This document shows positions 3,945 to 60,430 of a stretch of DNA of 64,000 bases, in pieces (the stretch's first letter is position 1; each line of letters starts with the position of its first letter). The stretch is taken from positions 23,898 to 87,897 of IMG/VR virus record IMGVR_UViG_3300031519_008340; one strand, written 5' to 3'. The position numbers and the translations under genes are program-made. The notes beneath the pieces are model-generated. The model saw nothing but the letters and a program-made list of their open reading frames with translations. It made no database searches and was not told the origin of the DNA. The stretch comes from a virus (lineage: Duplodnaviria; Caudoviricetes).

Positions 3945-4431
3945 AGTCTAATTGCTCACATTGTCTCGAGATGTCTTTTACAAAATATGCACACTGAGGA
4001 TCTGGACCATCGGATAACGGCACTGCTAATAACTGTCCTGCTTTAATTTTTGGAAAGTACCACTTAACTTCTGTGTAAATGTCAACTATATCCACATTTA
4101 AAAATTCTGGATGTCCACCAGTTAGTGGGTTGAATAAGAAAGCATCAAAGCCTCGGTCATTCAAACTTGTAATTGGCAAAACATGAAGTTCTCCTTGTTC
4201 TGCTTCACCTATGACCATTTTCCAATCAAGAGGCATTGAAATTTTATATTTGCCAATTTGTAAAACTGCCGCTGGTGCGTTAAAACTTTCTAAAAATATT
4301 AGAGGTATGTAAAAGTAGTCAGGATTGGTTGGATCTGAATTATCTAATACAGCAAACCGCATTTTTTCATCAACCCACTCAGGTATTTTTTCTAGTTTGT
4401 ATGTTTCGTTATCCAGTGAAAGAATTTTCAT
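3928..4431 (-). CDS. Hypothetical protein
   Basis: 167-aa ORF directly downstream of uvsW; no recognised motif. Confidence 0.75.
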   Translation of the reverse strand: MKILSLDNETYKLEKIPEWVDEKMRFAVLDNSDPTNPDYFYIPLIFLESFNAPAAVLQIGKYKISMPLDWKMVIGEAEQGELHVLPITSLNDRGFDAFLFNPLTGGHPEFLNVDIVDIYTEVKWYFPKIKAGQLLAVPLSDGPDPQCAYFVKDISRQCEQLDYGQCF

Positions 4432-7259: not shown

Positions 7260-7287
7260 AGTATAACACAACTGGTAAACTTGTCAA
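7260..7287 (-). promoter_or_regulatory. Sigma70-type early promoter of the helicase/replication operon
   Basis: Minus strand TTGACA (7287-7282), 16 nt spacer, TATACT (7265-7260) with an extended TGn. Confidence 0.7.
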
Positions 7288-7292
7288 TTGAT

Positions 7293-7760
7293 ATGAAGAA
7301 AAAACTTAAAAATACTAGAAGATCAATCAAATTTAGAGTGAAGAATGCTCTAAAAAAGAGACAACATATAAAGATATACAGACCAACTTTACCAGTAACA
7401 CAGAGCTGGTTTAGAACCCTTAACAGGGGCCTTTTTAGTGGTAGACTAGTTGAACCTGAACTGTTTGTTAAACGACTTGTAGGCGATTGGGGCAGATGTG
7501 TTGCTAATTGGGACAATAGGAAAGCAAGAAGAGGAACCTATGACCAAAGAGTTATTCCATATGCAAAAGCAGATATAGAATATAGATTAGAACTGCATTG
7601 CAAATTTCCAAATTGGAAAGACTTTATTGAAACACTAGCTCATGAAATGGTGCACTTATATCAAATGCAGGTCATGGAAGATCCTTATTCAAATCACAAT
7701 CACAACTTTTACAGTTTTAGATCTAGATTTAAACAGTTTGGTTTAACACTGTATCGTTAA
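7293..7760 (+). CDS. SprT-like zinc metalloprotease
   Basis: FIETLAHEMVHLYQM (HExxH) followed by NHNHNF. ATG at 7293 (track starts at 7200). Confidence 0.75.
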   Translation: MKKKLKNTRRSIKFRVKNALKKRQHIKIYRPTLPVTQSWFRTLNRGLFSGRLVEPELFVKRLVGDWGRCVANWDNRKARRGTYDQRVIPYAKADIEYRLELHCKFPNWKDFIETLAHEMVHLYQMQVMEDPYSNHNHNFYSFRSRFKQFGLTLYR

Positions 7761-8460
7761 ATTCTTTGTAAGAAATAGTTTTACTGTTTCCTAAATCTGT
7801 ACCTGTTTGTAAATTATTTAAAAATTCAGGTGGATTGTCATGTACTATTGTAAAATTGCAATAAGGTCTTTGTTTTATAAATCTTCTAAATTGTTTTAAC
7901 CATCCATCAAAAATTGCATCGTCGTGCCTCTCTCCGTAATTAGAAGTATCCTGGTATATGTTGTTTAATTTGTCTTTGCCATATTCTCTAAAGTCAAAAC
8001 CTAAGAGATATAAATTTTTATGTCCGTGGACTGTAGCGGTCCAAATTGCTTGATTGCCTGATATTACGTGTGGGTTGTTAGGTATTAGGTGTAACATTTT
8101 TTTACTGTATCTTCTATTCACTTCCAAAGAAGGCGCATAATGAATACATTTTTTTCCAACTTCATTTTGACACATTTCTAATGTAATTTTTGAATCAACA
8201 CTAAAGATAAAATCTGGAATAAAATCTCTGTATAATGCATTACAGCCGTAAGTTTGTCCGGTATTTTTTAACTTGCTTAGATCAAACTTTTTCCTAGAAG
8301 GTCCATTTCCTATTATGTAAGCGTGTCCTCTTGGCACAGCATTTACCTTATCTTTAACAAACTCTTTTTCAAAGACACGTTCTCCTTTCTTTATTATTGT
8401 GTTAAGAATTATAGTTTCTCCTTTATAAGGAGTCCATTCGATAGGTTCAATTTTTTCCAT
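7729..8460 (-). CDS. Maf/DUF115/GT42-like putative glycosyltransferase
   Basis: YIIGNGPSR...TYGCNALYRDF.PDFIFSVD...LYLLGFDF motifs; paralog of 59562..60188. Confidence 0.6.
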   Translation of the reverse strand: MEKIEPIEWTPYKGETIILNTIIKKGERVFEKEFVKDKVNAVPRGHAYIIGNGPSRKKFDLSKLKNTGQTYGCNALYRDFIPDFIFSVDSKITLEMCQNEVGKKCIHYAPSLEVNRRYSKKMLHLIPNNPHVISGNQAIWTATVHGHKNLYLLGFDFREYGKDKLNNIYQDTSNYGERHDDAIFDGWLKQFRRFIKQRPYCNFTIVHDNPPEFLNNLQTGTDLGNSKTISYKEFNDTVLNQTV

Positions 8461-9322
8461 CTAAATATTTTTCCTTTATTCGATTACGTATTCTTTCCCA
8501 TGGTGTGCCTTCTTTAATTTCGTCAGTCCACCATTCTGTGTATGCTAATTCTTGTGTCCACAACTCTCTGTCAGGAATAAGTGGTCTTGACATAGTTGAG
8601 TAATCTGGATTGCCAACATTGTATGACAAACTTGATTTAGAAACAAATACAGGTACACCGTTGAATACTGATTGCATAGCAGGATTTGAACTATGGTTTA
8701 CAACTGCCCATGCATTGTCCAATTGTTTTACAAAGTCTGTATCATCATAGGTGTTTGTGTCTCTTCTTGGCATTTGTGTTTCAACTCCAGCCATTTTAAT
8801 TGAAATAGGATTTCTTGGGTGTGGTCTAATTATAATTTTTTTGTCAGTTACCTTTTTAATTGCTGTGACTTGTTCTAGTAACCAGTTGTTCATCTTTGGA
8901 AGGTCACGCCACTGTTCACTGCTGTCATGTTGTCCACAAATTATTATATTGTCACCTCTGCGTTTCCAGGGTTTTAAGTCAATGTTAAACTTTTTCCATC
9001 TTGACTCAAAGTGTGGAGCAACTGCAAAATCAGCATCACGATTCACACCGTTAATTCCAATCTTCCAGGTAAAATTTCTTTTGATACCACCAACCTCTAA
9101 AACCACTACAGGTTTTTTAAGTGCTTGAAATTCTTTCCAAATTTGTAAGTTGTTACGCATTCTACCCTGCCATAACACACTCCATATGACGGCAACATCT
9201 GTATTGTGATCGTGCTTATTAATTTGGAAATCTTCATTTTTATTTTTTAAATTTTCAATGAAAGCATCAAACACAGGTTTTGAATTTAAACTTCCGTATG
9301 CTGGAAAAACACTTATCTTCAT
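8447..9322 (-). CDS. KpsS/KpsC-like (capsule synthesis family) glycosyltransferase, paralog 1
   Basis: IIIRPHPRN, VVNHSSNPAMQSVFNGVPVF, C-terminal LAYTEW...EIKEG. Confidence 0.6.
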   Translation of the reverse strand: MKISVFPAYGSLNSKPVFDAFIENLKNKNEDFQINKHDHNTDVAVIWSVLWQGRMRNNLQIWKEFQALKKPVVVLEVGGIKRNFTWKIGINGVNRDADFAVAPHFESRWKKFNIDLKPWKRRGDNIIICGQHDSSEQWRDLPKMNNWLLEQVTAIKKVTDKKIIIRPHPRNPISIKMAGVETQMPRRDTNTYDDTDFVKQLDNAWAVVNHSSNPAMQSVFNGVPVFVSKSSLSYNVGNPDYSTMSRPLIPDRELWTQELAYTEWWTDEIKEGTPWERIRNRIKEKYLDGKN

Positions 9323-9329
9323 ATTTTGA

Positions 9330-10253
9330 TTAGTTGCCTATTTTACCTTTCGCAACTTTACTTACGATGTCATTAGCTTGTTTAGGATCAAACTTGATAC
9401 CACCAAACGGATCGTAGTTTTCTACGTTTTTCCAGTATCCTTCTTCTCTTTGTATTCTCAAATCACTTCGAGAACTTTTGCCTTTAATTTTTCTTTTGCC
9501 TTTCATATGGTCAATGTATTCACCTAACACACTGTTAATAAAGACATGGTGCCCTTTTGCACCAGCACCCTTGCCAATGTCAACTCCGTCATTTGGTGCA
9601 ACTCTTTTTAATATCTGCCAAAAAAGATAACTGTCGTGCCATTCCAACTCTTTAAAAATAGTGTCCTTGTTGTAAAGATCTGTCCATGTTTTCATAAACT
9701 GATTAATTTTTGAATGCCTTCTATTGTAACATACCCAACCGCATTCTGGATATTTTTCACCTCTCCCTAAAAAATTTACTAGTTTGTCTTTAGGCAATAA
9801 GTCTGTAACAAATTTTTCAGTTATTGGTTTGAAAGTAAATGTATCTGCGTCAAGCCATAGTATGTAATCAACATCGATGTTTTTAATTGCATGATCTACT
9901 GCAAAAGTTTTATGACTAAATCGCACAGCGTCCCATAGATAACTGCCTTTGCCCTTGTCGTTTTTTCCTGCATTAGGATTTCGTCTAACACCTCCAGCAA
10001 TCTCATTTACTTCGCCGTTAGCAACCGGATCATTTTTATACTTGTTTTTAAATCTTACAAGGTCTGGATTAGCATCTTCAATATTGACATATTCAATTTT
10101 ATTGTGTTTTAAATTAGGAGTAGGTCCTTCGTGATAAGCAGTAATCTTAACATCGTTAGGCCAAAACTTTATGTGACTTTGTAACATCCTTTCCGCATAA
10201 GCATTCCATCTGTTTGGTGGAAAGGTTGTAATTACTCTAAGTGTACTCATCAA
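9330..10253 (-). CDS. Glycosyltransferase (GT-A, DxD)
   Basis: ILWLDADT DxD motif, WDAVRFSHK, EWHDSY; lies in the glycan island. Confidence 0.65.
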   Translation of the reverse strand: MMSTLRVITTFPPNRWNAYAERMLQSHIKFWPNDVKITAYHEGPTPNLKHNKIEYVNIEDANPDLVRFKNKYKNDPVANGEVNEIAGGVRRNPNAGKNDKGKGSYLWDAVRFSHKTFAVDHAIKNIDVDYILWLDADTFTFKPITEKFVTDLLPKDKLVNFLGRGEKYPECGWVCYNRRHSKINQFMKTWTDLYNKDTIFKELEWHDSYLFWQILKRVAPNDGVDIGKGAGAKGHHVFINSVLGEYIDHMKGKRKIKGKSSRSDLRIQREEGYWKNVENYDPFGGIKFDPKQANDIVSKVAKGKIGN

Positions 10254-10258
10254 ATTAT

Positions 10259-12013
10259 TTAATAGTTTTTAACATCAAACTTATCAAACCAGGTTGCCCA
10301 AATCATGTCAATACTTGCTCTTTTACCAGTTTTTTGATTCAATTGGTGCGGCATTTCTTTTCCTGTTTTTGTTTGATAAAACTTTTTTAGGTTATTATCT
10401 TTGTTCATCCAATAGGCCATTGGCGCAGTCCACCCAGTCTTTTCCTTGCCAATAATAAATTTAGGCAAGTGATCTATATATGCTCTCCTGCTCATATTTT
10501 TTAATTCAAATTTATTATCAAGTTTTTTTTTACCAAAAAACTGTGATAGTTTATGTAATGAATGCATTGACATACAATACTTCATAAAAGTTTTTGAAGC
10601 CAATGGGTAACGTCCTTCCATACTGTATGCCATTCCAAATTTGTCATTTCTTATAAGAAACTCTTCAGGACATACTGTTGCAAGTTCTAAACAACAAAAA
10701 CTGTTTAAAGGATCTGCAGGATTGTACATATCACTTCCAAATGTTTTTAAAAATTCTTCTAAAACTTCTTCTTTTGAATATTTGTTTTTGTTTACACTAG
10801 CAGTTGGTTTTTGTCCTAGTACTAGATATCGGCAAATGTCTTTCCAGTTCTTAATTTTAATTTTTCCTTGTTTAATTTCCATCATAAATCTTCTATGCCT
10901 TGGGTACCCGCAAAGCAACTCGTCGCCAAGATCTCCAGCCATTGTAATTTTGACATTATCTTCTCGCATTACTTTATTTGTGTAGATATTAGCAGGCAAG
11001 CTAGGACTTCTAATTAATTGCTCAAATGACTCTACTGATTTGTCCCAATATTCAAGATAAATTTCAGGAGTTATTGTAACTTGTCTGTGATTGTATCCTG
11101 CATGATCAGCCAACATTTTTGCAGTTCGAGAATCTGAATTATAGTCTTCATCTACTATATTAGGATCCGGGTCAAATCCATTTGTGTATGAATTAACTTC
11201 TCCGTGAATTGCTTTTAATTCATTAGATATCATACTTGAATCCATTCCGCCACTTAGAAACAAGCCAATTTTTTTATCGCCAATACTGCATCTACGAACA
11301 GCATCTTGCACTTGTTGTTTAAATTCTTTAGGATTGTAACTGTGATTATTAATTGGCAATATATTTTCTCTGGTGATTGTTAAAATTTTTTTACTTACAA
11401 CTCCGTAAATAATTGTTTCGCCTGGTAAAAGTTTTTTGATGTTACTGAAAAAAGTATTTCTTAAAGGATTCACAGTCATGTAATGGAAAATACTGTGGGC
11501 CATTTTATCTAATATGCGAGATCCAGGCACTTTGTCTAGCATACCTTTTATTTCAGAACCAAAAACAAGTCCTTCTTTTACTTCTGCATAAAATACAGGT
11601 TTAATGCCTGCATGGTCTCTGCTTAAAATAAGTTGTTGTTTTTGTATATCGTAATAAGCAAACCCGTGCATTGAATCTAATTCATTTACAAAAGTGCTAC
11701 CAAAGTTATCAAGACCCCAAGCAAGTAATTCTGTATCGCATTTGGTCTTTGGAGTAAAACTGTTTTTATACTTTTCTAGCAGTTCATAGTAATTAAAAAT
11801 TTCACCATTGTATACTAATATGTTTCCTTTGGGTGTTTTCCAAGGCTGTCTAGCCTGACTAGGTTCTCCCATAATACTCAATAAGTTATGTCCCAACGTA
11901 ACCTTATCATTGTTCCAAATATCAGAACCGTCAGGTCCTCTATGTTTGCAGATGTCAATGTACTTTGTTATAAAGTCTCTATCAACAGCAGTTATTCCGT
12001 ATATTCCACACAT
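10259..12013 (-). CDS. asnB: Asparagine synthase-like glutamine amidotransferase
   Basis: N-terminal MCGI (Ntn Cys), HRGPDG, YNGEIFN, SRDHAGIKP, LFLSGGMDSS, AGDLGDELLCGY, EGRYP. Confidence 0.9.
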   Translation of the reverse strand: MCGIYGITAVDRDFITKYIDICKHRGPDGSDIWNNDKVTLGHNLLSIMGEPSQARQPWKTPKGNILVYNGEIFNYYELLEKYKNSFTPKTKCDTELLAWGLDNFGSTFVNELDSMHGFAYYDIQKQQLILSRDHAGIKPVFYAEVKEGLVFGSEIKGMLDKVPGSRILDKMAHSIFHYMTVNPLRNTFFSNIKKLLPGETIIYGVVSKKILTITRENILPINNHSYNPKEFKQQVQDAVRRCSIGDKKIGLFLSGGMDSSMISNELKAIHGEVNSYTNGFDPDPNIVDEDYNSDSRTAKMLADHAGYNHRQVTITPEIYLEYWDKSVESFEQLIRSPSLPANIYTNKVMREDNVKITMAGDLGDELLCGYPRHRRFMMEIKQGKIKIKNWKDICRYLVLGQKPTASVNKNKYSKEEVLEEFLKTFGSDMYNPADPLNSFCCLELATVCPEEFLIRNDKFGMAYSMEGRYPLASKTFMKYCMSMHSLHKLSQFFGKKKLDNKFELKNMSRRAYIDHLPKFIIGKEKTGWTAPMAYWMNKDNNLKKFYQTKTGKEMPHQLNQKTGKRASIDMIWATWFDKFDVKNY

Positions 12014-12336
12014 TATTTTCCTTTAAAATATTTGTCAATTTTGTTTTCTTCATTCTGATGTTTTTCATAATCAGGCATTGGATCTTTTTTTGTTGTAATC
12101 TGTTGCCATTGTTTCGCCCATTCTCCGTTGAACTTTACCCATTCCTCCGTGCCTTCTTCGTTGTCTGACTTTATTGCGTCTTCAGGACACTCAGGTTCGC
12201 ATACGCCACAATCAATACATTCATCTGGATTAATGACCAGCATATTTTCTCCTTCATAGAAACAGTCAACAGGACAAACTTCTACACAACTTGTATGTTT
12301 ACATAGAATACATTTGTCGTTAACAATGTATGTCAT
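12013..12336 (-). CDS. fdxA: FdxA-type (7Fe/8Fe) ferredoxin
   Basis: [43 protein letters not shown]. Confidence 0.92.
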
Positions 12337-13319
12337 TACAAACCTAATATGGATTTAAATCTTTTATAAACTGTGCCGTCTTTGATTTCTTTAATGCTCC
12401 ACATCTTGTATCCTAAATCATGCAACCATTGCGTTCTATCAGGCATTTCTGGAGTTTCAATCTTTGTTAAATCTTTATTTGCTACAGGCCAACAAAGTGC
12501 AAGATCGCTAGTACAAAAGGTAGGAATCCCCCTAATGCAGGAGTCAGTTGAGGCAGTAGAATTGTGAGTAACAACAGCATGGCAATTAGTTATTGCTTGT
12601 TGGAAATGAAATCTATAGTGCTTTTTCTCATCTCCTTTAAAATGTTTTTCTCCAATATGCACATCAACATCACTTGGAAATTCGTTACGTCTCTGTTCAA
12701 TGTTAGCAACATTATTTGGATGTGGTCGAACAATAAACTTTCTTTTTGTAAGTGGCCTTAATTTTTTATACACGTCTTTAAACCAATCTATTGGATCTAG
12801 TTCGTTCATGCTCCAGTTGTCTTTTGGTTGTAAAACAAACAATATAGGATCTTCTAAATTTGATTTTCTCCACTCTTCGTGTTTAACATTGAAAAGTTTT
12901 TTCATCATTTCCCATCTATCAGAGGGTGAATTATTTGATAAAAAGTTTCCGTTATTCATAGGAGTGTTTAAAGCAACTCTAAAATGGTGATCTGGTGATG
13001 TAGAAACATTGCCAAAGCTAGACAGCACTCCGCCATCAAAAGTAATAACGTGTGTACCTTTTTTCTTTGCTCTTTCAACTAGATCTAATCTTCTTCCTTT
13101 GGTGTGATGTCTTTGATTTGTACCACCGTAACCAAACATTACGGCTATAGGTGCTGTTGGTTCCATTTCATTTTCTACAGTTGGGCCAGTTAACCTTTCG
13201 TTTACAATTACTGGTTCGTCTCCAGCCGCTTTGACTCCTTCAGCCATTTGATACAGTAGCTCATAACTGTTGCCTCTTCTACGATCTTTAACTGTTCTTC
13301 TAAATATTTCAACCTTCAT
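12336..13319 (-). CDS. KpsS/KpsC-like glycosyltransferase, paralog 2
   Basis: [43 protein letters not shown]...EIKDG. Confidence 0.6.
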
Positions 13320-14157
13320 TTTTATTTACAAATACTAATTCTAGCATTGCCTTTAATCTTTTTCTATTGATGAAAACATAATTATCTTTGCTCATTTTAG
13401 CACACATTTCTCTTATGTCGTTAAAATTGTCTTCGTAACTTCCGGTTAATCCTAGCTCCACTTCTGTTGCCCATACTTTAAATTTTATCTTTTTATCTAA
13501 CATTTCATTTGCAAACTCTTTCCAAAATCCTTCAATGTCTGTTTTTACTATGTCCAATTCTTGTAGATTTTTTTCCTGCATCAAAGTTTCAAGATTTTTA
13601 AATTTTACATCAACACTTTGTTTTGTGCCAGTAGGATCAAAGGCACTAAAACTTTTTGTGTGTGCTTGAACCGGAGCAAATTTGTCAGTGTTATTCATTT
13701 TAATTGCTTTATAATAAAACTTTCTTGTTCCATTAGTTGGAGCATAGCCAATTGCAGTATAGTTTATTTTTTTATTGATCCTTTTATTCCATTCTTTCCA
13801 TGACGCAACTTTGTACTTTTCTACAATTTCTTGTTGAATATTTTTTAATTCTTTTTTGCCACTTGCTTTTATAATGCCATATATATTTGTTTGTGTCCAC
13901 GGAGTAGGATCAAAAAGTTCAACTTCTAAGTTAGGATTATCAGTTAGTAAAAGTTTTTCAAAGCCAACATCACCTCCAACACCAAAACTCATAACGCTAC
14001 TAGATTTTAAAACAATTTCTTTTGGTAAAAAATAATTTCTATAACGCTTAAAATTGTGCTTTGTTGGAGCAATCTCTTTTTCTAGTATTCTTATTTTTTC
14101 TACTATTTCTTTATGTTCGGGTTTTAATCTATCAGCCATGTAATATATTCCATGCAA
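13309..14157 (-). CDS. FkbM/Methyltransf_22-like SAM-dependent methyltransferase
   Basis: VMSFGVGGDVGFE, ELFDPTP, VKTDIEG; the start may be a few codons downstream. Confidence 0.65.
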   Translation of the reverse strand: MHGIYYMADRLKPEHKEIVEKIRILEKEIAPTKHNFKRYRNYFLPKEIVLKSSSVMSFGVGGDVGFEKLLLTDNPNLEVELFDPTPWTQTNIYGIIKASGKKELKNIQQEIVEKYKVASWKEWNKRINKKINYTAIGYAPTNGTRKFYYKAIKMNNTDKFAPVQAHTKSFSAFDPTGTKQSVDVKFKNLETLMQEKNLQELDIVKTDIEGFWKEFANEMLDKKIKFKVWATEVELGLTGSYEDNFNDIREMCAKMSKDNYVFINRKRLKAMLELVFVNKNEG

Positions 14158-14950
14158 CTCCTTTTTGCATTTCTTCCATTGTAAAATTATTATACGCTAA
14201 ATTGGAAAACAATGCAATCCTATCTTCATATTTTGGAGTTTCAATTTTACTAAAATCAGTTTCTGAAATTGGTAAAGCCGCACTGTTGTCTGTGTCACAG
14301 AACACAGGTACTCCATTAGTTAGACTCGCAATCATAGTGTTGCTGTTATAAAGCACTGTTGCAAAATAGTCATTCCAATTGATTAATCCTTGGTGGTTCG
14401 TGGGCTTATCAATTTTTACAGTGGCGCCAACATGGTCAACTGCAATTGTTGGATTGTATGGCTTTTCTCTAATGTCAATTTCTCTATCTGTGCTATTTTT
14501 TAATGTTTTTATTGTATCATCTAACCAACTTTGTGCATTGAAATGATTTGCTACTGCATTTGTAGGAGGCAAAACTAAAATTTTCTTTCCTGCTTTGTTC
14601 CACGGTTTTAAATCTCTTTTGAAATATTTTTCATATCGATCAGGTTTATCTGTTATCATTTTGTTTTGACAGTGTGCATTCTTTGTAATTCGCAACCAGT
14701 GAGGTTTATCATGAGCATTTGTAAAATAGCCATGGTCCATAAAATAAAAATCACGATTTTCTTTCTCACACCATTTATATACTTCACCGGATCCTGCAAG
14801 AATTCCGTACATTACTAAATGTTCAGGAGGCAATTCTTTAAGGTCTCTAAAGTTATAAATTTTGTATTCGCCTGGAGTGCCTTTTACAAAGGATTCTACA
14901 TATCTTTGTGTTCGTGGTTTAGTTGTATGAATACCAGCAACGTTTATCAT
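14132..14950 (-). CDS. KpsS/KpsC-like glycosyltransferase, paralog 3
   Basis: FYFMDHGYF, IREKP, VLYNSNTMIASLTNGVPVF, LAYNNFTMEEMQKG. Likely start ATG 14950 overlapping the upstream TGA. Confidence 0.6.
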   Translation of the reverse strand: MINVAGIHTTKPRTQRYVESFVKGTPGEYKIYNFRDLKELPPEHLVMYGILAGSGEVYKWCEKENRDFYFMDHGYFTNAHDKPHWLRITKNAHCQNKMITDKPDRYEKYFKRDLKPWNKAGKKILVLPPTNAVANHFNAQSWLDDTIKTLKNSTDREIDIREKPYNPTIAVDHVGATVKIDKPTNHQGLINWNDYFATVLYNSNTMIASLTNGVPVFCDTDNSAALPISETDFSKIETPKYEDRIALFSNLAYNNFTMEEMQKGVAWNILHG

Positions 14951-16071
14951 TCTTTTATCCCTGCCTCTTCCATTGAGTTTTTTAAATATGTCCATTGTAA
15001 ATCAAACTTAAACAAGTCATTTAGCCGTTTTACTCCCGGGGGCTTTTTCCCATCAATCAACTCTTCTTCTTTTATATCAGGACAACGTGTAGTAAACGGC
15101 AGGTCCAAATGATGTGCTAGTACTGGATAAACTTTTTTACCTAGCATAGTATCTCTTTGAAATTCTAAAATTCTTGTGCCTGATTGGCACCATAATAAAT
15201 TTGTAAGGCCAGCGCCATGTGGTGCAATTATAGATTTTGCTTCTGCAAAAATTTGCATTTGTTTTCCTATAGGTAATTTTTCTAGTTGAACAAATTCCCA
15301 ACCTTTTAATTTCATAAACAGTGCTTGTTCGTTTTGTATATGTCTTGCTACAGCATTTTTTCTACTGATCCATAACTTCCTAAATGGTTTTACTTTAATT
15401 TTTGGTGAAAATTTGTGTCTTAGCCATCGCACCATGTCAGCATTTGTGATACCGTCATGAACGTTGCTCATTGATGGCACTAGTAAATGTTTGAACGCCC
15501 AAGTTTCACCTCTGGGCATTACATAATATTTTAAATTAGGAAAACAATGCTTGGCAACTTTATCAAAATAGGCACTTCTATTTGGCAATATTGGAACAAT
15601 TGATTGCCAACTACGGCCATATCTTTTTTCTATCAATCTAAATTTTGATATTAAATCTATCCATATGTGCCATGGATTGCCTGCACTTTCTTTATCAATT
15701 GGCAACCACACATAGGTATCCTGTTCGTTAAACGTCTTTGAAACTTCAGGAATTTTTAGGTCAATGTGGCTTCTATTTTTTTGATTCCATGGCATGCTCC
15801 ACAGGCCGTGTTTGTATGGTTTGGCCTTAAACTTAGATAGTATTGGCCAAATATGATCACTAATAATTTCATTATCTTCTGTGTGCAAGAGTGGCAACGT
15901 ATGCGCTTTTACATTATTAAATTCTATCATAAAAGTTGGCGGACTACTAAAAACTCTAAAAGGTTGGTCTTTGTGGTAATCTACTTTGTAAACATCACCA
16001 TTATCAATTTTGTCACCGCGCTTAAGAAACCAGTTTTTACTTTCAATTATTTTTGTGAGTGAACTCATCAA
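14947..16071 (-). CDS. GT61/DUF563 family glycosyltransferase
   Basis: GNPWHIWID, LWISRKNA, QMQIFAEAKSIIAPHGAGLTNLLW. Confidence 0.75.
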   Translation of the reverse strand: MMSSLTKIIESKNWFLKRGDKIDNGDVYKVDYHKDQPFRVFSSPPTFMIEFNNVKAHTLPLLHTEDNEIISDHIWPILSKFKAKPYKHGLWSMPWNQKNRSHIDLKIPEVSKTFNEQDTYVWLPIDKESAGNPWHIWIDLISKFRLIEKRYGRSWQSIVPILPNRSAYFDKVAKHCFPNLKYYVMPRGETWAFKHLLVPSMSNVHDGITNADMVRWLRHKFSPKIKVKPFRKLWISRKNAVARHIQNEQALFMKLKGWEFVQLEKLPIGKQMQIFAEAKSIIAPHGAGLTNLLWCQSGTRILEFQRDTMLGKKVYPVLAHHLDLPFTTRCPDIKEEELIDGKKPPGVKRLNDLFKFDLQWTYLKNSMEEAGIKE

Positions 16072-16112
16072 CAGTAATTATCGTGCATTGCCACACCCTA
16101 TTAAATAACAGC

Positions 16113-16931
16113 ATGGACCAATTCACAGAGCGTTATGGCTCAAATAATTTTAAACGTGGCTATATACCAGAACCTTTTGGTAAAGATCAATACATCACAG
16201 ATCCGTTTGAAAAACTAGATTATACAGCAAACAGTTATATCCAATGGGATAACTTTAAGGACTGTCAAATTAAAAGCAACAAATATGATTATCGAATTCT
16301 TATCAGTGGTGGTGACACTGTGTATGGCAAGGACAAATGGCCTTTTGCAGTTTTTAAAGCACTTGTTGAAAAAGAATTAAAAAATCAAATACCGTCACTT
16401 AAACGGGTGGCAATTTTTAATCTTAGTTTACCTGGTGCTGACAATGATTGGACTGCAAAATCAATCATGAATGCATATCATATTTTACATCCTGACTTTG
16501 TTTGTGCAGTATGGCAACCAGGACAGAATCAATATGAATTTGAAAAGTTGCAATATATGATGGATTGTTTCTTCTTAATGATTCAAAGAAAATACAACGC
16601 ATTGAATAAACAAGATTCAAAGCAAAGAACAATAGACTATAATCCATTAATGGCCGATGACCCATTGAGAGATTATAGTACTAAAGTATTCAAATACGTA
16701 GTAGGACACATTAAGAGATTAAAAAATTTACACTTCAGTAAAGAATTGCCAGCAAAAAAACAAATAAAATTAATTGATGATGATGGAAAAAATTGTGTAA
16801 TTAATGATCCTTTATTGTTTGCAAGACATTTAAAAGATTATCATATAAAACAAAAAAGAAGAAAGTGTTATGCTTTTAATGGCACATGGAGTGTAGATGA
16901 AGATCTAGTTAGAAAGGTGCAAACAAAATAA
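16113..16931 (+). CDS. Hypothetical protein, possibly a degenerate SGNH fold
   Basis: ILISGGDTVYG, FNLSLPGADNDW resemble SGNH blocks I/II. ATG 16113 lies 5 nt after TAAATA (track starts at 16059). Confidence 0.55.
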   Translation: MDQFTERYGSNNFKRGYIPEPFGKDQYITDPFEKLDYTANSYIQWDNFKDCQIKSNKYDYRILISGGDTVYGKDKWPFAVFKALVEKELKNQIPSLKRVAIFNLSLPGADNDWTAKSIMNAYHILHPDFVCAVWQPGQNQYEFEKLQYMMDCFFLMIQRKYNALNKQDSKQRTIDYNPLMADDPLRDYSTKVFKYVVGHIKRLKNLHFSKELPAKKQIKLIDDDGKNCVINDPLLFARHLKDYHIKQKRRKCYAFNGTWSVDEDLVRKVQTK

Positions 16932-17597
16932 ATGAAGATATTCTCAAATGGTTGTAGTTTTTTAGGGCCAAGACCAAAAGATGGCATAGAAACATATACT
17001 ACTAAAGTGATTGCAGACAACTGGCAAGTTCCATTAATTGATTCAGCCGCAGGTGGTAGAGGTAACGATAGAATATGCTTTACAACAAAATTATTTTTTG
17101 CACAAAATAAAGAAAAGTTTTTTGCTATTATTGGGTGGAGCAGTGCTGAACGAATGGATTATGTAACGAATGACGGATGGAAAGCAGGACGTTTTCCTTG
17201 GAGTAAAACAACTTGGCGTACTTGGAAAGTACAAGAACCAACTGCATTAAGATTTGTAATGAAACAAAAAGGATACGATATTGAAATGACTTCTGCAAAA
17301 AGAATTGTAACACAGGTTTTAGATTTACAAAACTTTTTTAAGTTGAACGATATAGAGTATGTAATGTACAATTCACTTAAACAAAATTGGGGATTAACAA
17401 ATCCTGATATGAAAATACTATACGATCAAATAGATAAAAAAAGATATTTTAAAATTGATTATTCTCAGCAGGAATACATTCACAAACACGGTTATATAAG
17501 TTCAAAAAATGATCCGCACCCAAATACACAAGGGCACACACTATGGGCAAAACAACTAATGGAGTTTATTGATGCTAACAATTTACGCACCAAGTAA
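16932..17597 (+). CDS. SGNH/GDSL hydrolase-like protein
   Basis: IFSNGCSF, AAGGRGNDRI, DPHPNTQGH; paralog of 53044..53748. Confidence 0.7.
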   Translation: MKIFSNGCSFLGPRPKDGIETYTTKVIADNWQVPLIDSAAGGRGNDRICFTTKLFFAQNKEKFFAIIGWSSAERMDYVTNDGWKAGRFPWSKTTWRTWKVQEPTALRFVMKQKGYDIEMTSAKRIVTQVLDLQNFFKLNDIEYVMYNSLKQNWGLTNPDMKILYDQIDKKRYFKIDYSQQEYIHKHGYISSKNDPHPNTQGHTLWAKQLMEFIDANNLRTK

Positions 17598-18390
17598 TAA
17601 ACCACAGAGTAAATGTTGGGAAGTTTTTAAAGGCATACAAACAAGCTGGCCATCTGCAGTAAAAATTGCAGACAACAGTTTGCCTTACTATCTAAACGAC
17701 GACAACGACTCTATGTTTTGGGGTCTTGTCAATAATAACACTAATCTTATACATCAAATTGCAGAACGCGGACAAACTTATTGGTTTACAGATACTCCGT
17801 ATTTTGGAAGATTTGACAACAACAATTTACAACCCAACAATCATTATTGGAGATTTTGTAAGGACAATATCCATACAACAAAAATTTTAGATTGTGACTC
17901 TGATAGATTTAAAAAATTTAATATTACTGTTAAAGAACATAATCCGGGAAAAGAATATATTTTAATTTGTCCTAGTAGTGCAGGAGTTCATTTGTATCTT
18001 GGAGTGCCAAATTGGCTTGATGAGACAATCAAAGAAATAAAAAAACACACAGATCGTCCAATTAAGATTAGAAATAAACCAAGAGGAAAAGGAACCAGTG
18101 GTCCTGCTGTAGCTACCATACCCTTAGCAGAAGATCTAAAAAATGCTTACTGTTGTGTGACAAGTTGTAGTATTAGTGCTGTTGAATCTTTAGCGACAGG
18201 AATTCCTGTTATATGTAGCACAAGAAGTTTTGCTTCGCCAATTGCAGAAACAAATCTAAATAATATAGAAAAACCTCTTTATCATGAACCTACAAAATGG
18301 CTGAACAGTTTGGCTTATCAACAATTTACGCCAGAAGAATATGCAAACGGCACTGCTATATCAATTTTAAAAAATTTTAAGATTATCTAA
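17569..18390 (+). CDS. KpsS/KpsC-like glycosyltransferase, paralog 4
   Basis: YWFTDTPYF, IRNKPRG, VTSCSISAVESLATGIPV, WLNSLAYQQFTPEEYANG. Confidence 0.6.
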   Translation: MMLTIYAPSNKPQSKCWEVFKGIQTSWPSAVKIADNSLPYYLNDDNDSMFWGLVNNNTNLIHQIAERGQTYWFTDTPYFGRFDNNNLQPNNHYWRFCKDNIHTTKILDCDSDRFKKFNITVKEHNPGKEYILICPSSAGVHLYLGVPNWLDETIKEIKKHTDRPIKIRNKPRGKGTSGPAVATIPLAEDLKNAYCCVTSCSISAVESLATGIPVICSTRSFASPIAETNLNNIEKPLYHEPTKWLNSLAYQQFTPEEYANGTAISILKNFKII

Positions 18391-18842
18391 TATTTACAAA
18401 GTAAGTCTAGTCTTTTTCCAGTCTCGGGGTCAAATTCTAATCTCACATTTAATAATTTTGTACCGGCTTTGTTTTTTTTAGGATTTTTTAGTTGCCAATT
18501 TAATTTCCTCTTACACAAAAGCATATAATTTGGCGATATAGTAACATCGTGTCCGTCAATCATAATTGATACGTTAGTACGATCTGTGCGTTGTAAAAAG
18601 AAGTATGTACCATACCATGTGTCATCGTTTTCTCTATAATCCGCATGGATTTCTTCACACCAGGACAACATGGTTACGTCATTGTTTACTAAAAATTGTT
18701 CCCAAGCACCATATGTTGGCTTGCCCCAATGTTCGTATAAGGCATCGTATTTGTTAGGCTCTATAGGATGTGTGCATTTAATAAATTTATCTGTTTTTGG
18801 AGCAGTTTCTATTCTACCTAGTATTGGTGTTGTGTAACTCAT
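18387..18842 (-). CDS. Hypothetical protein, possible compact 2OG-Fe(II)/DSBH relative
   Basis: 151 aa; EIHADY (HxD) and weak resemblance to the N-terminus of 20282..21034. Confidence 0.4.
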   Translation of the reverse strand: MSYTTPILGRIETAPKTDKFIKCTHPIEPNKYDALYEHWGKPTYGAWEQFLVNNDVTMLSWCEEIHADYRENDDTWYGTYFFLQRTDRTNVSIMIDGHDVTISPNYMLLCKRKLNWQLKNPKKNKAGTKLLNVRLEFDPETGKRLDLLCKY

Positions 18843-18848
18843 ATTTTT

Positions 18849-20282
18849 TTAACCTACAGATCCTTCCATGCTTATTTCTAGCAGTTTATTTGCTTCTGCG
18901 GCAAACTCCATTGGTAATTTTTGAAATACTTCTTTACAAAAGCCACTAACCAACATATTAATTGTGTCTTCAGTTGGTATGCCTCTTTGCATACAGTAAA
19001 ACATCTGCTCGTCACTCAACTTGCTTGTGGTTGCTTCGTGTTCACAAGTTGAACTGCTGTTTCTATTTGATATCACAGGCACAGTTGAAGCACTACATCC
19101 TGATCCCATCATTAAACTGTCACACTGAGTAAAGTTTCTACTGTTGGTTGCCCGTTTCATTATCTTTACTTCTCCACGATAGGTGTTGGCACTTTTGCCT
19201 GCACTTATACCTTTTGATATGATTGTGCTTTTGGTGTTTTTGCCTATGTGTATCATTTTGGTTCCTGTGTCTGCTTGTTGTCTACCATTGGTCAAAGCCA
19301 CACTGTAAAATTCTCCCACACTGTGATCACCCATTAAAATACAACTTGGATACTTCCAAGTCAATCTAGATCCTGTTTCAAACTGTGTCCAAGTTATCTT
19401 ACTGTGTTTTCCTATGCACTTGCCACGTTTGGTAACAAAGTTGTAGATACCACCTTTGCCTGTGATAGGATCTCCAGGATACCAATTCTGTATAGTTGAA
19501 TACTTTATTTCTGCATTATCCAACGCAACCAATTCAACATTGGCGGCATGCAATTGATTCTCATCTCTCATAGGTGCTGTACACCCTTCAAGGTAACTGA
19601 CATAACTGTCTCTTTCTGCTATGATAAGTGTTCTTTCAAATTGTCCTGTGTTGGCCGCATTTATTCTAAAGTATGTTGATAATTCCATTGGGCATCTTAC
19701 TCCTGGTGGAATATACACAAAGGATCCGTCTGTGAACACTGCACTGTTTAAGGCCGCAAAACTATGGTCACTGATCGGGATTACCGAACCCAAATACTTT
19801 TTTACTAGTTTAGGATGGTTCTGCACTGCTTCACTAAAACTGCAAAAGATGATTCCCATCTTTTTTAATTCATCTGAAAAGGTTGTAGCGACTGATACAG
19901 AATCAAATACAGCGTCAACAGCCACTCCAGCAAGTTTTGATCTTTCATGTAAAGGTATTCCTAGTCTTTCAAAATCCTTCTTGATCTCAGGATCAACTTC
20001 ATCATATGATGCAGGGCCTTTTTTTGGTGCTGAGTAATAACTCATTGCTTGATAGTCAATGGGCTCAATGTCTAGGTTGGCCCAATTAGGTTTTTTTAAA
20101 ATTTTCCATCTGTCAAATGCTTTTAGTCTAAAATTTAACAACCATTTAGGTTCTTTTTTAATTTTACTAATTTGTCTTACAGTATTTTCGTTAAGTCCAG
20201 GGGGTAAAGTTTCAGATTCTACGTTCGTAGTAAATCCTGCTTCATATTTTTTGTCTAGAGTTTTTTGAAGTACGTCCTGCAT
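18849..20282 (-). CDS. sufB: Fe-S cluster assembly scaffold SufB
   Basis: [64 protein letters not shown]; full length, no intein. Confidence 0.96.
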
Positions 20283-21034
20283 TATACTTTTTTAATAGGA
20301 AACATTTTGTATTGTCTGTCTGTAACTTCAGCAATGATGTTTATGCTTAATCTTTCTGTCTCAGAATTTAATCTTGGAGTCACTCCATGCACAGCTCTAT
20401 TTGTGTTTAAGAACATTACAAAACAATTTGGCTTATATTTTATAGTTTTAACAACTTCTCTTTTTGTTTTTTCTAACAGTTCTCTACCGTTTTGTCTTGA
20501 TACTTCAAACACAGGATCAGATTTGTAAATTACAAAATCTCCACCTTCTGCTTTATCTTCAGGTTTACGCATATACAATAGTCCTGCATAAATTTCAACA
20601 GGATTATCCAAATGATCAGTTCTTGTTGTTTCTTTTACTGGATTATGTATAACAAATTGTGTTTCAGTAACAACTTTGCTTTCTCCCGAACCTCTTACAG
20701 CAACTTTTTGTTGTTTTAAAAAGTCTATATGTTGTATATGTTTTTCAAACAAATTTAAAACCTTACTATAATATTCTTGGGAGGTATGAGCTTTAAAAAA
20801 GTTTTCCCAGTCTTCAGATACAGGCACAATTTTTTTATTCAATACATCATTAGACATATATCTAAAAGTGTGTCCGCCGATAATTTCAAGTTTGTCTTTT
20901 ATTTCCTGTACTGGCCAATTGTTGTATAATTTTTTATATACGTCTTCGGGTAGTGCATCTTCTATTATTACGTGAGGATACGGATCTTCAAAGTAGTGTT
21001 TGGCAGGATCAAATTTGTCTAATACTGTAATCAT
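20282..21034 (-). CDS. 2OG-Fe(II) oxygenase
   Basis: DHLD (HxD), [13 protein letters not shown]...AVHGVTPR...RLSIN. Start ATG 21034 overlaps the upstream TAA; its stop overlaps the sufB ATG. Confidence 0.8.
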
Positions 21035-21708
21035 TAACTTGAAAATAGGTTGATTAATTCTTTTTTCCACACGTCGGCATATTCGCACTCTCTGTATCCA
21101 TCAAACCATGGACCACCCTCTGTGTAGTGTAGTATTTTTGGTTTGCCATCTTGTGGTTCTTTGTACCACTCAACAAGCCAATTGTATTCTAGAGGAAGTT
21201 GTCCAATTTCATTGTCTTCCAACCAACTAAATCTGTGTAAAAATTTTGCATCTTTTTCGTTTAGTAATTCTGGAGTGAGCAGTTTGTTCTTTGGATGTTC
21301 GCAGTTCCAAAGCACCATGCTTGACCAATTTTTTCTAGGATATACTGTTTGTACTTGCCCGTCCATTTTTGTGCCTTCTTTGGGTTTGTAATCGTGTTGC
21401 ACACAGACAACTGCTTTCGATGGGTCACAGTATTTTACTAATTCATGACTAGGAATTTGCCATACAAAATCACAATCACAAAACACTGCCCAACCTTTAA
21501 AATCGTTTAGGTAAGGAATAAAAAATCTTGTAAATGTAAATTCTGTAGATGCTAATTTATCAACAGGTCTGGTGTACATACCCTGTTCTCTCATCTGTCT
21601 TTGTTTTAATGGTATAACTTCAGCTGATGGGTCTCTTCTTTTAATACTGTGTTCACACACTTGGTAAGCAATATCTTCTCTGCTGTCGTGTCCTACATAA
21701 ACTTTCAT
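21034..21708 (-). CDS. GT8-like glycosyltransferase
   Basis: MKVYVGHDSRE, STEFTFTRF, FCDCDFVW (DxD), RKNWSS, ILHYTEGGPWF. Start 21708 is 5 nt after TAAATA. Confidence 0.75.
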   Translation of the reverse strand: MKVYVGHDSREDIAYQVCEHSIKRRDPSAEVIPLKQRQMREQGMYTRPVDKLASTEFTFTRFFIPYLNDFKGWAVFCDCDFVWQIPSHELVKYCDPSKAVVCVQHDYKPKEGTKMDGQVQTVYPRKNWSSMVLWNCEHPKNKLLTPELLNEKDAKFLHRFSWLEDNEIGQLPLEYNWLVEWYKEPQDGKPKILHYTEGGPWFDGYRECEYADVWKKELINLFSS

Positions 21709-21737
21709 AGTCATATTTACACTATAAATATCAGCAC

Positions 21738-22463
21738 ATGAAAATTTCCGAACGTTGTAGAGCATATGAACAAAAGTTTCCTTTTACTCCTTGTGAGGGC
21801 GATACAAAAGTTGAAACAAATACCAAAGGGTGGAGTAGGCACAAACAATACAGCATACCTAACAGCATCAGAAACGAAAGTAGAATGTTCTGGTGTTTTG
21901 GTGTATCAAGAGAAATTAGATTTGAACTAGCTTGTAGAAAGTATAATAAAAAAGCAAAAATTTTAACTTTTGATCCAACACCGTTATCACAACAAACAGT
22001 AGACAGTGCTAATAGAGGAAACTATAAAATTGAACATACACCAAAAGCATACGATACTGAAAGCGGAAAAACATTAAATTTTTATGCAATTGATGAAAGT
22101 TTAAAATGTTATCAATTAGACAAACCCGAAATATTTTACAACATAATAGAAGTAGAAACAATTAATTTAAAATCAATACTTGATACACATGGTCCTAATG
22201 TTGATGTAATTAAATTAGACATTGAAGGACGTTGGTATGAAATGCTTAAAGAAATACAAGATTTAAAATTGCAACCAATAATAGTTTTAGTTGAGTGCGA
22301 AATGTACATTGGCAACACTGATGAAGCATTTGCTAAACTAGACTCAATAGTAGAACTCTATGAACAAGCAGGGTACACTGTGCGTACTAACAGACAATTA
22401 AGAAATAATTCTAACTGTGTTGAACTTTGTTTTATTAAACAAGGACACGGAATAGAGCTTTAG
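21738..22463 (+). CDS. FkbM-like methyltransferase
   Basis: MFWCFGVS, LTFDPTP, VIKLDIEG; TATAAATA at 21723-21730, 7 nt before the ATG. Confidence 0.65.
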   Translation: MKISERCRAYEQKFPFTPCEGDTKVETNTKGWSRHKQYSIPNSIRNESRMFWCFGVSREIRFELACRKYNKKAKILTFDPTPLSQQTVDSANRGNYKIEHTPKAYDTESGKTLNFYAIDESLKCYQLDKPEIFYNIIEVETINLKSILDTHGPNVDVIKLDIEGRWYEMLKEIQDLKLQPIIVLVECEMYIGNTDEAFAKLDSIVELYEQAGYTVRTNRQLRNNSNCVELCFIKQGHGIEL

Positions 22464-22831
22464 TTTAGCTGTCCGCTGTCCCTCATTTTTTGTCTTATTT
22501 TAGTGGCTGATATTTTTTGAACTGCTTCTGGTAGCACAATTTCTTCTATTTTATAACCAACACCTCTGCCATAACATATATTTGTAATATTAGGCACTAA
22601 AATAATTTTAAATTGTCCAGTATATTGTTCAAGTGCAGTTTCAATGTTAGCTTTTACAGTTTCAAAATCAAATGGATTGTCATCTATCCCTTTTACATCT
22701 CTAACCATTATTAAAACTTGTCCTGTTTTCTTTAAGATTTCTTCAAATAGTTTTTGATGGCCCGCATGCCATGGTTGCCATCTGCCTAACATTTGTGCCG
22801 TTGGTTTTCTATTGTCCCAATTATTTTTCAT
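22460..22831 (-). CDS. HxGH-superfamily nucleotidyltransferase
   Basis: MLGRWQPWHAGH and C-terminal ISATKIR. Confidence 0.75.
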   Translation of the reverse strand: MKNNWDNRKPTAQMLGRWQPWHAGHQKLFEEILKKTGQVLIMVRDVKGIDDNPFDFETVKANIETALEQYTGQFKIILVPNITNICYGRGVGYKIEEIVLPEAVQKISATKIRQKMRDSGQLN

Positions 22832-23264
22832 TTTTATCTATATCCTGTTTAATTAAAAACGCCCACATCTCTGCGTCCATATGTGGTACTTTGTAATTAA
22901 AATGTTTAGGTGGTACAAACATTTTATTTGTGTCTTCAAATCTACCTTCTTTTATTGTGTCCATCCAGATTACATAATCAGCGTTAAAGTCTTCTCTTGT
23001 TTTTTCTGTTGGACAGACAAAATCAGCAATTACATTTCTGTTTTCTTTCACTGCGGCTTCTGCCATGTCTTTCATTCTGTTTGCTTGTCTAGTTCTACCT
23101 TCGGGAGAAAAATCCCAATCGTTTGCTTTTTTTCTTACTTCATCTGCATTAAGCCATACTGCATTTAGCATTGGTACCAATTTTTGTGCTAATGTAGTTT
23201 TTCCTGATCCGGGCAAGCCACAGATTAATATTTTCATTTTTGGTTTATCGCTGTGTACTTGCAT
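22821..23264 (-). CDS. cysC: Adenylylsulfate kinase-like P-loop kinase
   Basis: ILICGLPGSGKTT, WLNADEVR, DWDFSPEGRTRQA, F..P motif; the start may be ATG 23237. Confidence 0.7.
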   Translation of the reverse strand: MQVHSDKPKMKILICGLPGSGKTTLAQKLVPMLNAVWLNADEVRKKANDWDFSPEGRTRQANRMKDMAEAAVKENRNVIADFVCPTEKTREDFNADYVIWMDTIKEGRFEDTNKMFVPPKHFNYKVPHMDAEMWAFLIKQDIDKNEK

Positions 23265-60188: not shown

Positions 60189-60430
60189 TACAATGTTAAA
60201 TTATCGTCTGTGGTAGGTTGTCCATACATCTTTTGGACAAAAAGTGCTTCTTCTTGTTGCTCTGCTTCGTGTTGTTCTGAAGCAAGCCTCATTTTATTGA
60301 TGTTTTTTAAAGTAAGTCTTGTTTTTCGTGTGTCTGCTTTATCAAGTACAGAAATGTCATCTTCAGCATTATAGTTTTTTTGCTGTTCAAGACCCTGTTC
60401 ACCTGCTGTAAAAAATTCTTTAAGTATCAT
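60188..60430 (-). CDS. Small prohead-associated protein (80 aa)
   Basis: Likely start ATG 60430 (MILKEFF...RKTRLTLKNINKMR), 5 nt after TAAATA; the track extends it to 60559 inside the portal gene. Confidence 0.65.
   Translation of the reverse strand: MILKEFFTAGEQGLEQQKNYNAEDDISVLDKADTRKTRLTLKNINKMRLASEQHEAEQQEEALFVQKMYGQPTTDDNLTL

Follow-up and report, generated by a model that had tools for sequence, protein, structure and literature searches.

A conserved glycan-enzyme island in an uncultured marine giant phage and its possible target on the virion

Introduction

To what does a phage attach the product of a long block of glycan enzymes: its own particle, the surface of its host, or its DNA? 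The question is raised by positions 7729-23264 (the island) of a 64,000-nucleotide stretch of viral DNA (the window), which spans positions 23,898 to 87,897 of IMG/VR record IMGVR_UViG_3300031519_008340. The 87.9-kb contig, of which the window forms the final 64 kb, has a CheckV completeness of 23%, from which a genome size of roughly 380 kb can be estimated. The carrier of the island is an uncultured, very abundant marine giant T4-like phage. Its terminase, portal, sheath, tube and capsid genes were identified in the window by PHROGs, and its capsid protein shares 68-72% identity with the capsid proteins of the best-matching cultured jumbo phages (Sinorhizobium phage Phosso, Vibrio phage 2.275.O, PA5oct, and GAP32).

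Glycan clusters of marine T4-like phages have been classed for twenty years as host-surface 'LPS genes' (LPS, lipopolysaccharide) without a test, while a sequence-only reading of this window had proposed a late-expressed system that decorates the virion. Our analysis identified the island as a phage glycan gene cluster of known type, with one unrecognised enzyme family. That it is a glycan assembly line is, in our judgment, very likely. We favour, tentatively where the whole statement including the target is concerned, a soluble cytoplasmic line for a complex acidic oligosaccharide whose likeliest acceptor is one or more virion proteins. If true, it would be the first case of virion glycosylation among phages that infect Gram-negative bacteria; a particle coat of this kind would bear on the sticking, aggregation, decay, adsorption, and recognition of marine viruses.

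A conserved block of glycan enzymes within the replication and recombination module

The description of the island as a contiguous block of glycan enzymes was borne out by gene-by-gene identities and by conservation in related loci. We identified at least seven, and probably eight, glycosyltransferases in it: four KpsC/WbbB-like proteins, one GT42/Maf-like, one GT61, and one GT8-like enzyme, and a probable GT-A transferase (p307). Most of the enzyme calls in the sequence-only reading were correct.

The island is located apart from the structural genes, within the replication/recombination module. On one side it is flanked by a helicase gene (4409-5902), a gene for an unknown 448 amino acid protein (p448), and an SprT-like gene, and on the other by genes for an NT5C-type nucleotidase, UvsY, UvsX, and gp32; a split Pol III alpha, a DnaB-like helicase, and a primase are also encoded in these flanks. 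The position between helicase and UvsY/UvsX is kept in all four related contigs for which gene order was mapped. None of the related IMG/VR contigs found exceeds 71 kb.

Conservation was counted across 80 related loci, as were the motif occurrences given below. The core genes, encoding the GT42-like, four KpsC-like, p307, GT61, SGNH, 2-oxoglutarate (2OG) oxygenase, and GT8-like proteins, occur in 57-80 of these loci; KpsC-like paralog c is present in every one (median identity 73%), and the GT8-like gene, the best conserved of the island, in 77 (median identity 87%). Around this core lies a variable shell composed of AsnB (24 loci), FkbM (23), a kinase pair (3), SufB (1), ferredoxin (1), and the unannotated p272 (none). 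Two of the enzyme families are very common in ocean metagenomes, the KpsC-like family being encoded by at least 534 IMG/VR contigs and the GT8-like protein having more than 6,800 homologous clusters.

Searches of 50,697 GenBank phage records found homologs only in Pelagibacter phages and in a few uncultured or Caulobacter giant phages, and megablast of the island against GenBank phages gave no DNA match. Genes 183-191 of phage Mosig EXVC030M form a compact version of the island, with two FkbM genes, a p307 homolog, a GT8 gene, two KpsC-like genes, a sulfotransferase gene, and a glycosyltransferase gene. In HTVC008M, gp59 and gp32 flank a GT42-like gene, which is accompanied by a carbamoyltransferase gene and 2OG oxygenase genes. 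Since Mosig and HTVC008M, both cultured SAR11 phages, carry parts of the module, the virion question is open to a bench test.

The genomic setting also brings in DNA hypermodification, in which hydroxylated pyrimidines would be glycosylated to escape host nucleases. In T4, the beta-glucosyltransferase gene lies beside uvsX, and the present island lies amid replication/recombination genes, beside an NT5C-type nucleotidase gene, and includes a 2OG oxygenase. However, this oxygenase is P4H-like rather than TET/JBP-like, and no ThyA-family or TET/JBP gene was found on the 88-kb contig, a sample of about 23% of the genome. A ThyA-family gene is likewise absent from the complete genomes of Mosig and HTVC008M, the TET search there being one without a positive control. 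Furthermore, transferase folds for CMP-ulosonic acids (CMP, cytidine monophosphate), FkbM, SGNH, AsnB, and sulfotransferases are not known in DNA modification pathways. Because the enzyme families fit CMP-ulosonic-acid chemistry and a ThyA-family gene is lacking in Mosig and HTVC008M, we consider a DNA target very improbable. The sequence-only reading had reached the same conclusion from late timing; this argument is weak, since according to Lee et al. (2026; PMC13326640) most pyrimidine hypermodifications are added to DNA late, before packaging, so that group transfer to DNA can occur at that stage.

A phage family of KpsC/WbbB-like proteins

The four genes that had been described as KpsS/KpsC-like proved to be true paralogs with a KpsC/WbbB-like predicted fold. 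All-against-all BLASTP delineated a family of five members, four of them in the island: paralogs a (8447-9322, minus strand), b (12336-13319, minus), c (14132-14995, minus), and d (17569-18390, plus), which match one another with E values of 1e-9 to 3e-25; the fifth is encoded upstream (L002:13695-14603). The family has no Pfam, PHROG, or NCBIfam match, Pfam Capsule_synth has no match on the contig even at E 10, and a profile search of the PDB with the five sequences returned nothing useful.

An AlphaFold2 (AF2) model of paralog c built from 28 sequences has a pLDDT (predicted local distance difference test) of 85, and its top PDB matches by both Foldseek and VIA-align are KpsC, WbbB, and KrkA. 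The match to KpsC (Foldseek E 3.5e-6; VIA Z 11.3, root-mean-square deviation 4.7, 227 aligned) is followed by those to WbbB (VIA Z 10.2) and KrkA (8.9), while ordinary GT-B enzymes score 7.7 or less. The model thus has the GT-B variant fold with a helical subdomain that is typical of beta-Kdo transferases of GT99 and GT107 (Kdo, 3-deoxy-D-manno-oct-2-ulosonic acid). KpsC, WbbB, and KrkA are retaining beta-Kdo transferases.

The catalytic residues of KpsC were taken from PMC10148158, and the E. coli CFT073 KpsC sequence from a genome record (L167:16743-17717) served as reference; residues were assigned by motif position, not by structural superposition. The family motif R-P-H-P was aligned by hhalign on the K-V-H-P of KpsC (E 0.04). 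By motif position, four KpsC features are retained in paralogs a and b and in the upstream copy: an acidic residue where KpsC has E66, a K-aromatic pair corresponding to K133-Y134, the Q..D motif, and H-P. In paralog a the acidic base, Q..D, and H-P correspond to E76, Q-H-D133, and H168-P, and in paralog b to D95, Q-P-K-D167, and H200-P. The QXXXD motif, which contains the nucleophilic D160 in KpsC-N, is exact (QNPGD) in the upstream copy and reads QPKD in paralog b and QHD in paralog a; the spacing from D to H in these three is 32-35 residues, against 34 in E. coli KpsC-N. In paralogs c and d the motif is replaced, by position, by PPTN-A and PSSAG, with Asn146 and Ala138 in place of Asp, and the HP histidine by Lys178 and Lys170. 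Both the Asp and the His of the predicted catalytic centre are therefore replaced in c and d, which are nonetheless present in 80 of 80 related loci, and this makes them of interest for glycosyltransferase mechanism. PMC10148158 prints the general acid as 'His94'; residue 94 of CFT073 KpsC is Tyr and its HP motif is H194-P195, so a numbering slip is likely.

The resemblance to KpsC/KpsS (GT107) and WbbB (GT99) lies in the unusual GT-B variant fold and, judged by motif position in three paralogs, in an acidic base, Q..D, and HP at matching spacing. In contrast to those enzymes, the phage-encoded proteins are about 10-12% identical to them, give no Capsule_synth match, and are single short modules of 273-327 amino acids with a shorter helical subdomain and without the membrane-anchoring tail, and two of them have both Asp and His replaced. 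In BFVD, further structural relatives of the KpsC-like protein came from Caulobacter phage CcrColossus and from Tetraselmis virus 1 (TetV-1), the latter with four proteins.

A single-protein scan for cellular homologs with paralog b found 75-77% identical copies on two contigs only, L168 (VGUW01000086.1) and L169 (NHDJ01000070.1). These are filed under metagenome-assembled genomes of a Gammaproteobacteria and a Verrucomicrobia member and probably represent phage sequence that was binned together with bacterial DNA.

GT42-like enzymes in the island and in the head operon

The gene at 7729-8460 (minus strand), which had been read as Maf/GT42-like, encodes a 243 amino acid protein for which a full HMMER search found 1,028 relatives. 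A 46-sequence profile of the family matched GT42 sialyltransferases in the PDB with E values of 8.5e-8 to 1.9e-5 (best 9C08; CstII at about 1e-6), and the AF2 model (pLDDT 90) was matched by Foldseek to MptE, CstII, and Maf 5MU5 with probability 1.0. Structure prediction, which had been proposed as a check on the island ORFs (open reading frames), thus upheld the GT42-like call as it did the KpsC-like one. The protein has the GT42/Maf (MptE-like) fold and shares with CstI/CstII and Maf the nucleotide-binding motifs GNGxS, CN, SG..A, and G.D. The family lies below the Pfam cut-offs for PF01973 or PF06002 (best 18.9 bits against 34.6), and only 8 and 3 of its 46 members give any match to these two. 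The island copy also has a confidently modelled two-strand beta-hairpin (residues 14-36) N-terminal to the catalytic domain, which is absent from the second copy described below and from most relatives.

A GT42-like paralog, outside the island, is encoded within the head operon at 59562-60188 (minus strand). This 208 amino acid protein is 33% identical to the island copy and keeps all family-invariant residues; both phage proteins are far shorter than Maf (632 amino acids in chain 5MU5). The gene lies between the portal gene (in 72 of 80 related loci) and the protease, scaffold, and capsid genes (68 of 80), in a unit headed by TAAATA-N5-ATG at 60430. Fixation of a copy in the head operon, a trait in which these phage proteins differ from GT42 and Maf enzymes, is the best new argument for a virion target.

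Three other glycan-type genes directly follow the capsid gene in this phage, two of them with the TAAATA late motif: an FkbM gene (54900-55508, minus strand), a sulfotransferase-like gene (54165-54878, minus), and an SGNH paralog (53044-53748, minus). Of the 80 related head-operon loci, 11 have the sulfotransferase-like gene, and the FkbM and SGNH genes are not conserved there. The sulfotransferase-like protein (237 amino acids) has no Pfam match and was recognised by motif; it starts with FHHVPKTAGSS, whose PKTAGSS loop is the 5'-phosphosulfate-binding loop of sulfotransferases.

The gene that follows the head-operon GT42-like one (58515-59456) encodes an acidic 313 amino acid protein. Some 40 consecutive residues of this protein are 97-100% identical in three relatives and the rest has diverged (median 54%), a pattern that resembles an internal head protein with a capsid-targeting tag.

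The head-operon GT42-like protein could also be packaged cargo, injected to act on the next host, or a purely structural part of the prohead core, in which case it would be uninformative on the target of the island. Its slot between portal and prohead protease, which in T4 holds prohead core proteins, and the tag-like stretch in its neighbor would suit such a role. On the other hand, all family-invariant nucleotide-binding residues are retained, and no common N-terminal tag was seen between this protein and the neighbor protein; we regard cargo or core function as unlikely.

Other transferases and tailoring enzymes

The GT61, AsnB, FkbM, 2OG-Fe(II) oxygenase, and APS-kinase-like assignments of the sequence-only reading are all supported by Pfam matches (APS, adenosine 5'-phosphosulfate). 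The GT61-family glycosyltransferase (14947-16071, minus strand) scores 80.7 bits against PF04577 (E 1.6e-22; cut-off 27) and heads a long minus-strand unit. The GT8-like protein (21034-21708, minus; 224 amino acids) has no PF01501 match itself, and the call is carried by its homologs, as 4 of 12 close ones (71-83% identity) match PF01501 (best E 2.7e-7); among its homologous clusters, some have PF01501 or the label 'lipopolysaccharide biosynthesis glycosyltransferase', and D78-C-D80 is conserved in the family. The further DxD transferase that had been noted is probably p307 (9330-10250, minus), a probable GT-A enzyme in which D134-x-D136 is invariant in 17 sequences; family matches are weak (GT2, E 0.073), and the Atlas gave a lead toward nucleotide-diphospho-sugar transferases. 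A relation of p307 to the GT8-like family was considered and rejected, as hhalign shows none. Profiles of the GT8-like family, p307, and the 2OG oxygenase gave nothing useful against the PDB.

Enzymes that may tailor the glycan are encoded among these genes. AsnB (10259-12013, minus strand; Met-Cys start) is a glutamine amidotransferase (Pfam Asn_synthase E 1e-46, GATase_7 E 4e-25), and the two FkbM-type methyltransferases are encoded at 13309-14157 (minus; PF05050 E 4e-5) and 21738-22463 (plus; Pfam E 1.5e-10). The SGNH-type esterase/acyltransferase (16932-17597, plus; Pfam DUF6071 E 5e-6) proved sound, since its four signature blocks I, II, III, and V (S9, G42, N45, D194, and H196) are invariant in nine sequences. 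The P4H-like 2OG-Fe(II) oxygenase (20282-21088, minus; PF13640 E 2e-6) has the invariant residues H159-x-D161...H234...R246 and sits inside the transferase operon in relatives; a role as KdoO-type Kdo hydroxylase is not supported for it, as PF11004 has no match on the contig. Two island proteins, p272 (16113-16931, plus; found in this contig only) and p151 (18387-18842, minus), have no family match in our scans, and NCBIfam and PHROGs scans of the island's unannotated genes gave almost no match.

The repertoire extends beyond the island. The contig encodes three more FkbM proteins, a TylF-type O-methyltransferase, a PhyH-type dioxygenase, a nucleotide-sugar epimerase/dehydratase, two sulfotransferase-like proteins, and two more SGNH paralogs, which brings the glycan-type genes on the 88 kb to about 27.

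A start motif shared with the structural genes

The sequence-only reading had held the island to be expressed late, from TAAATA motifs shared with capsid and tail genes, and the sites it gave at 16102, 21714-21719, and 21723-21730 were confirmed. In the window, the full TATAAATA shows no enrichment (4 found, 5.9 expected), and the TAAATA core is rare, with 49 copies on both strands. An ATG follows at N3-10 in 23 of the 49, and 22 of these open ORFs of at least 60 amino acids. The ORFs with a TAAATA-ATG start in the window are structural genes and five island genes, and no replication gene is among them; in the related loci, the motif occurs in none of more than 500 instances of replication/recombination genes. 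The TAAATA-ATG element is thus genuine and a mark of the structural-gene regulon, which, by analogy with T4, would be late.

The five island starts are the ATGs at 10250 (p307; TAAATA-N5-ATG), 13319 (KpsC-like paralog b; TAAATA-N3-ATG), 16113 (p272; TAAATA-N5-ATG), 21708 (GT8-like; TAAATA-N5-ATG), and 21738 (FkbM-2, with the full TATAAATA-N7-ATG). The T4-type late -10 element common to the structural genes is found at all five and not at the head of the GT61 unit. Together, these starts head four island units with about 13 of the 19 genes, so that the earlier claim of late expression holds for this part of the island and not for the GT61 head, nor for the GT8-like gene of most relatives. In related loci, the motif precedes the epimerase gene in 23 of 28 cases, FkbM-2 in 11 of 11, p307 in 19 of 62, GT8 in 7 of 77, and GT61 in 6 of 72.

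At 22 sites between 1119 and 60430 in the window, TAAATA lies 3-10 nt (mostly 4-7) ahead of the ATG, and the structural genes concerned lack a Shine-Dalgarno sequence, a spacing that would imply leaderless or near-leaderless late messages. The gp32, capsid, and protease genes have strong AGGAG sites instead. In HTVC008M, TATAAATA-N5-ATG stands ahead of 2OG oxygenase, CsgF, and cyclase genes.

Scans for sigma-70 promoters and terminators returned counts at chance, and the sole convincing site was a near-consensus sigma-70 promoter (TTGACA-16-TG-TATACT, 11/12) at 7260-7287 (minus strand), ahead of the unit of p448 and helicase. This promoter is early-type and marks the island edge. Short near-identical contigs cover many island genes in three marine metatranscriptome runs of one study; timing, ends, and strand are not readable from them and DNA carry-over is possible, so they were not counted as evidence.

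The glycan and its possible acceptor

As modelled or predicted, five of the island transferases share folds whose characterised members use CMP-activated ulosonic or nonulosonic acids (Kdo, sialic-acid-like). The hypothetical proteins of the island can now be read as a phage KpsC/WbbB-like family and GT42-like enzymes, and because of these two families an acidic ulosonic-acid glycan is predicted. Donors such as CMP-Kdo would be supplied by the host, because no CMP-sugar synthetase was found on the 88-kb contig. The AsnB amidotransferase, the FkbM methyltransferases, the SGNH de/acylase, and the 2OG oxygenase would then tailor the glycan. Much of the line would be produced alongside the structural proteins through its leaderless TAAATA-ATG starts, its acceptor would most likely be one or more virion proteins, and the finished particle would bear an acidic glycan with methyl, amide, and possibly sulfate groups.

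In addition to the head-operon paralog, the start motif common to island and structural genes favours a phage-made acceptor, probably a virion protein. A phage-made acceptor is also favoured by the enzymes themselves, which look soluble: none has a hydrophobic segment (maximum KD19 1.43), and no priming phosphoglycosyl transferase, flippase, polymerase, ligase, or exporter was matched among the scanned 88-kb ORFs, in scans that were not aimed at these families. Maf enzymes, which have the same fold as the GT42-like proteins, glycosylate a protein, flagellin, in the cytoplasm.

Several points weigh against a virion target and against late expression. The virion case is built from gene position and promoter motif, and the word 'late' is borrowed from T4. 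It is the replication/recombination module, rather than the structural one, that contains the island. The GT61-headed unit of nine minus-strand genes, with GT61, KpsC-like paralog c, and FkbM at its head, has no TAAATA motif. The GT8-like gene likewise lacks it in 66 of 78 close relatives, and in two of the mapped contigs (L009 and L080) this gene directly follows the NT5C, UvsY, and UvsX genes on the same strand. In Mosig, the module stands behind nrd and RuvC genes and has no clear late motif. The contig represents about 23% of the genome, so that exporters could be encoded elsewhere or those of the host be used. Moreover, to our knowledge, every characterised relative of the KpsC-like, GT8, and GT42 enzymes acts on lipid-linked envelope glycans.

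This last point leads to host-envelope remodelling, in which the enzymes would extend or cap lipid-linked glycans of the host (LPS core, O-chain, or the Kdo-linked anchor of a capsule) on the inner side of the membrane and the host would export the product; the altered surface would block superinfection or keep progeny from sticking to debris. Envelope glycolipids are the substrate of characterised KpsC/KpsS/WbbB, GT8, and CstII enzymes (PMC10148158 and general knowledge), and this is the published reading for such regions: pelagimyophage regions rich in glycosyltransferases, with GT8 as the most frequent family, have been interpreted as a means of host-surface change (PMC7029224), and so have those of large cyanomyoviruses (PMC12801897). 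In one of the latter, S-SCSM2R, a GT8-like homolog with 48% identity lies three ORF numbers from kdsB and kdsA, and part of the island appears to be co-transcribed with recombination genes in many relatives. However, envelope remodelling would leave both the fixation of the head-operon paralog and the late-type starts unexplained, and it fits poorly with the lack of a membrane anchor and of matches to a primer transferase or to the flippase, ligase, and exporter families named above among the ORFs scanned on the 88 kb. The phage also appears strictly lytic, as no integrase was matched among the scanned ORFs. Taken together, we assign envelope remodelling an appreciable but minor probability.

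Returning to glycosylation of the virion, a broader proposition would be that one of the most abundant groups of marine giant phages, along with SAR11 myophages with the module, coat their particles in a phage-built acidic glycan rich in Kdo- or sialic-acid-like sugars, methylated, amidated, and sulfated, and made by an unrecognised family of retaining ulosonic-acid transferases, two of which would have a re-engineered catalytic centre. We regard this as possible but doubtful.

Comparison with known systems

The closest counterparts in genome type are the LPS-type clusters of P-SSM2, S-SCSM1, S-SCSM2R, and the pelagimyophage HRC regions, where a plastic part of a marine T4-like genome likewise brings together many glycosyltransferases and sugar-tailoring genes; GT8-like homologs are found in S-SCSM2R and Mosig. 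Unlike those clusters, the present one is carried by a jumbo phage at a locus fixed between helicase and UvsY/UvsX, consists mostly of ulosonic-acid-type transferases (listed as hypothetical in published annotations), and has late-type starts and a head-operon paralog.

A mycobacteriophage system (Freeman et al., 2023, as cited in PMC12619734) is similar in that transferases and methyltransferases are expressed with structural genes and a glycan coat on capsid or tail is proposed. In contrast to that system, the present one uses other enzyme families in a far larger set, concerns a Gram-negative marine host, and is predicted from its genes. Chloroviruses, mimiviruses, and TetV-1 also encode multi-enzyme cytoplasmic glycan pathways, and the four TetV-1 relatives of the KpsC-like protein match it with Foldseek E values of 5e-12 to 2e-8; these giant viruses differ in their eukaryotic hosts and have no gene order in common with the island.

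Passenger genes and other loci

Not every gene of the island is glycan-related. Two passengers, both unmentioned in the sequence-only reading, encode a SufB/SufD Fe-S assembly protein (18849-20282, minus strand; Pfam SUFBD_core E 3.5e-77) and a 7Fe-type ferredoxin (12013-12336, minus; Pfam DUF3470 and Fer4). The accessory pair of a P-loop, APS-kinase-like kinase and a 123 amino acid nucleotidyltransferase (22460-23264, minus) is probably also a passenger, and its membership of the system is uncertain. The kinase (22821-23264) matches Pfam AAA_33 (E 6.5e-14) and APS-kinase (E 1.3e-9), and the nucleotidyltransferase gives a sub-threshold ATP-sulfurylase match (E 0.027). In one relative the two form a single fused ORF of 259 amino acids (L004:1835-2614). 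Judged by these matches, the pair could be a miniature synthase of PAPS (3'-phosphoadenosine 5'-phosphosulfate) that supplies the sulfotransferase-like genes.

The phage carries an Fe-S supply kit, which includes SufB/D, the 7Fe ferredoxin, and a SufT-like FeS_assembly_P protein (L002:2887-3261), and it also encodes three radical-SAM proteins (28982-30511 in the window, L002:7154-8284, and L002:8271-9269).

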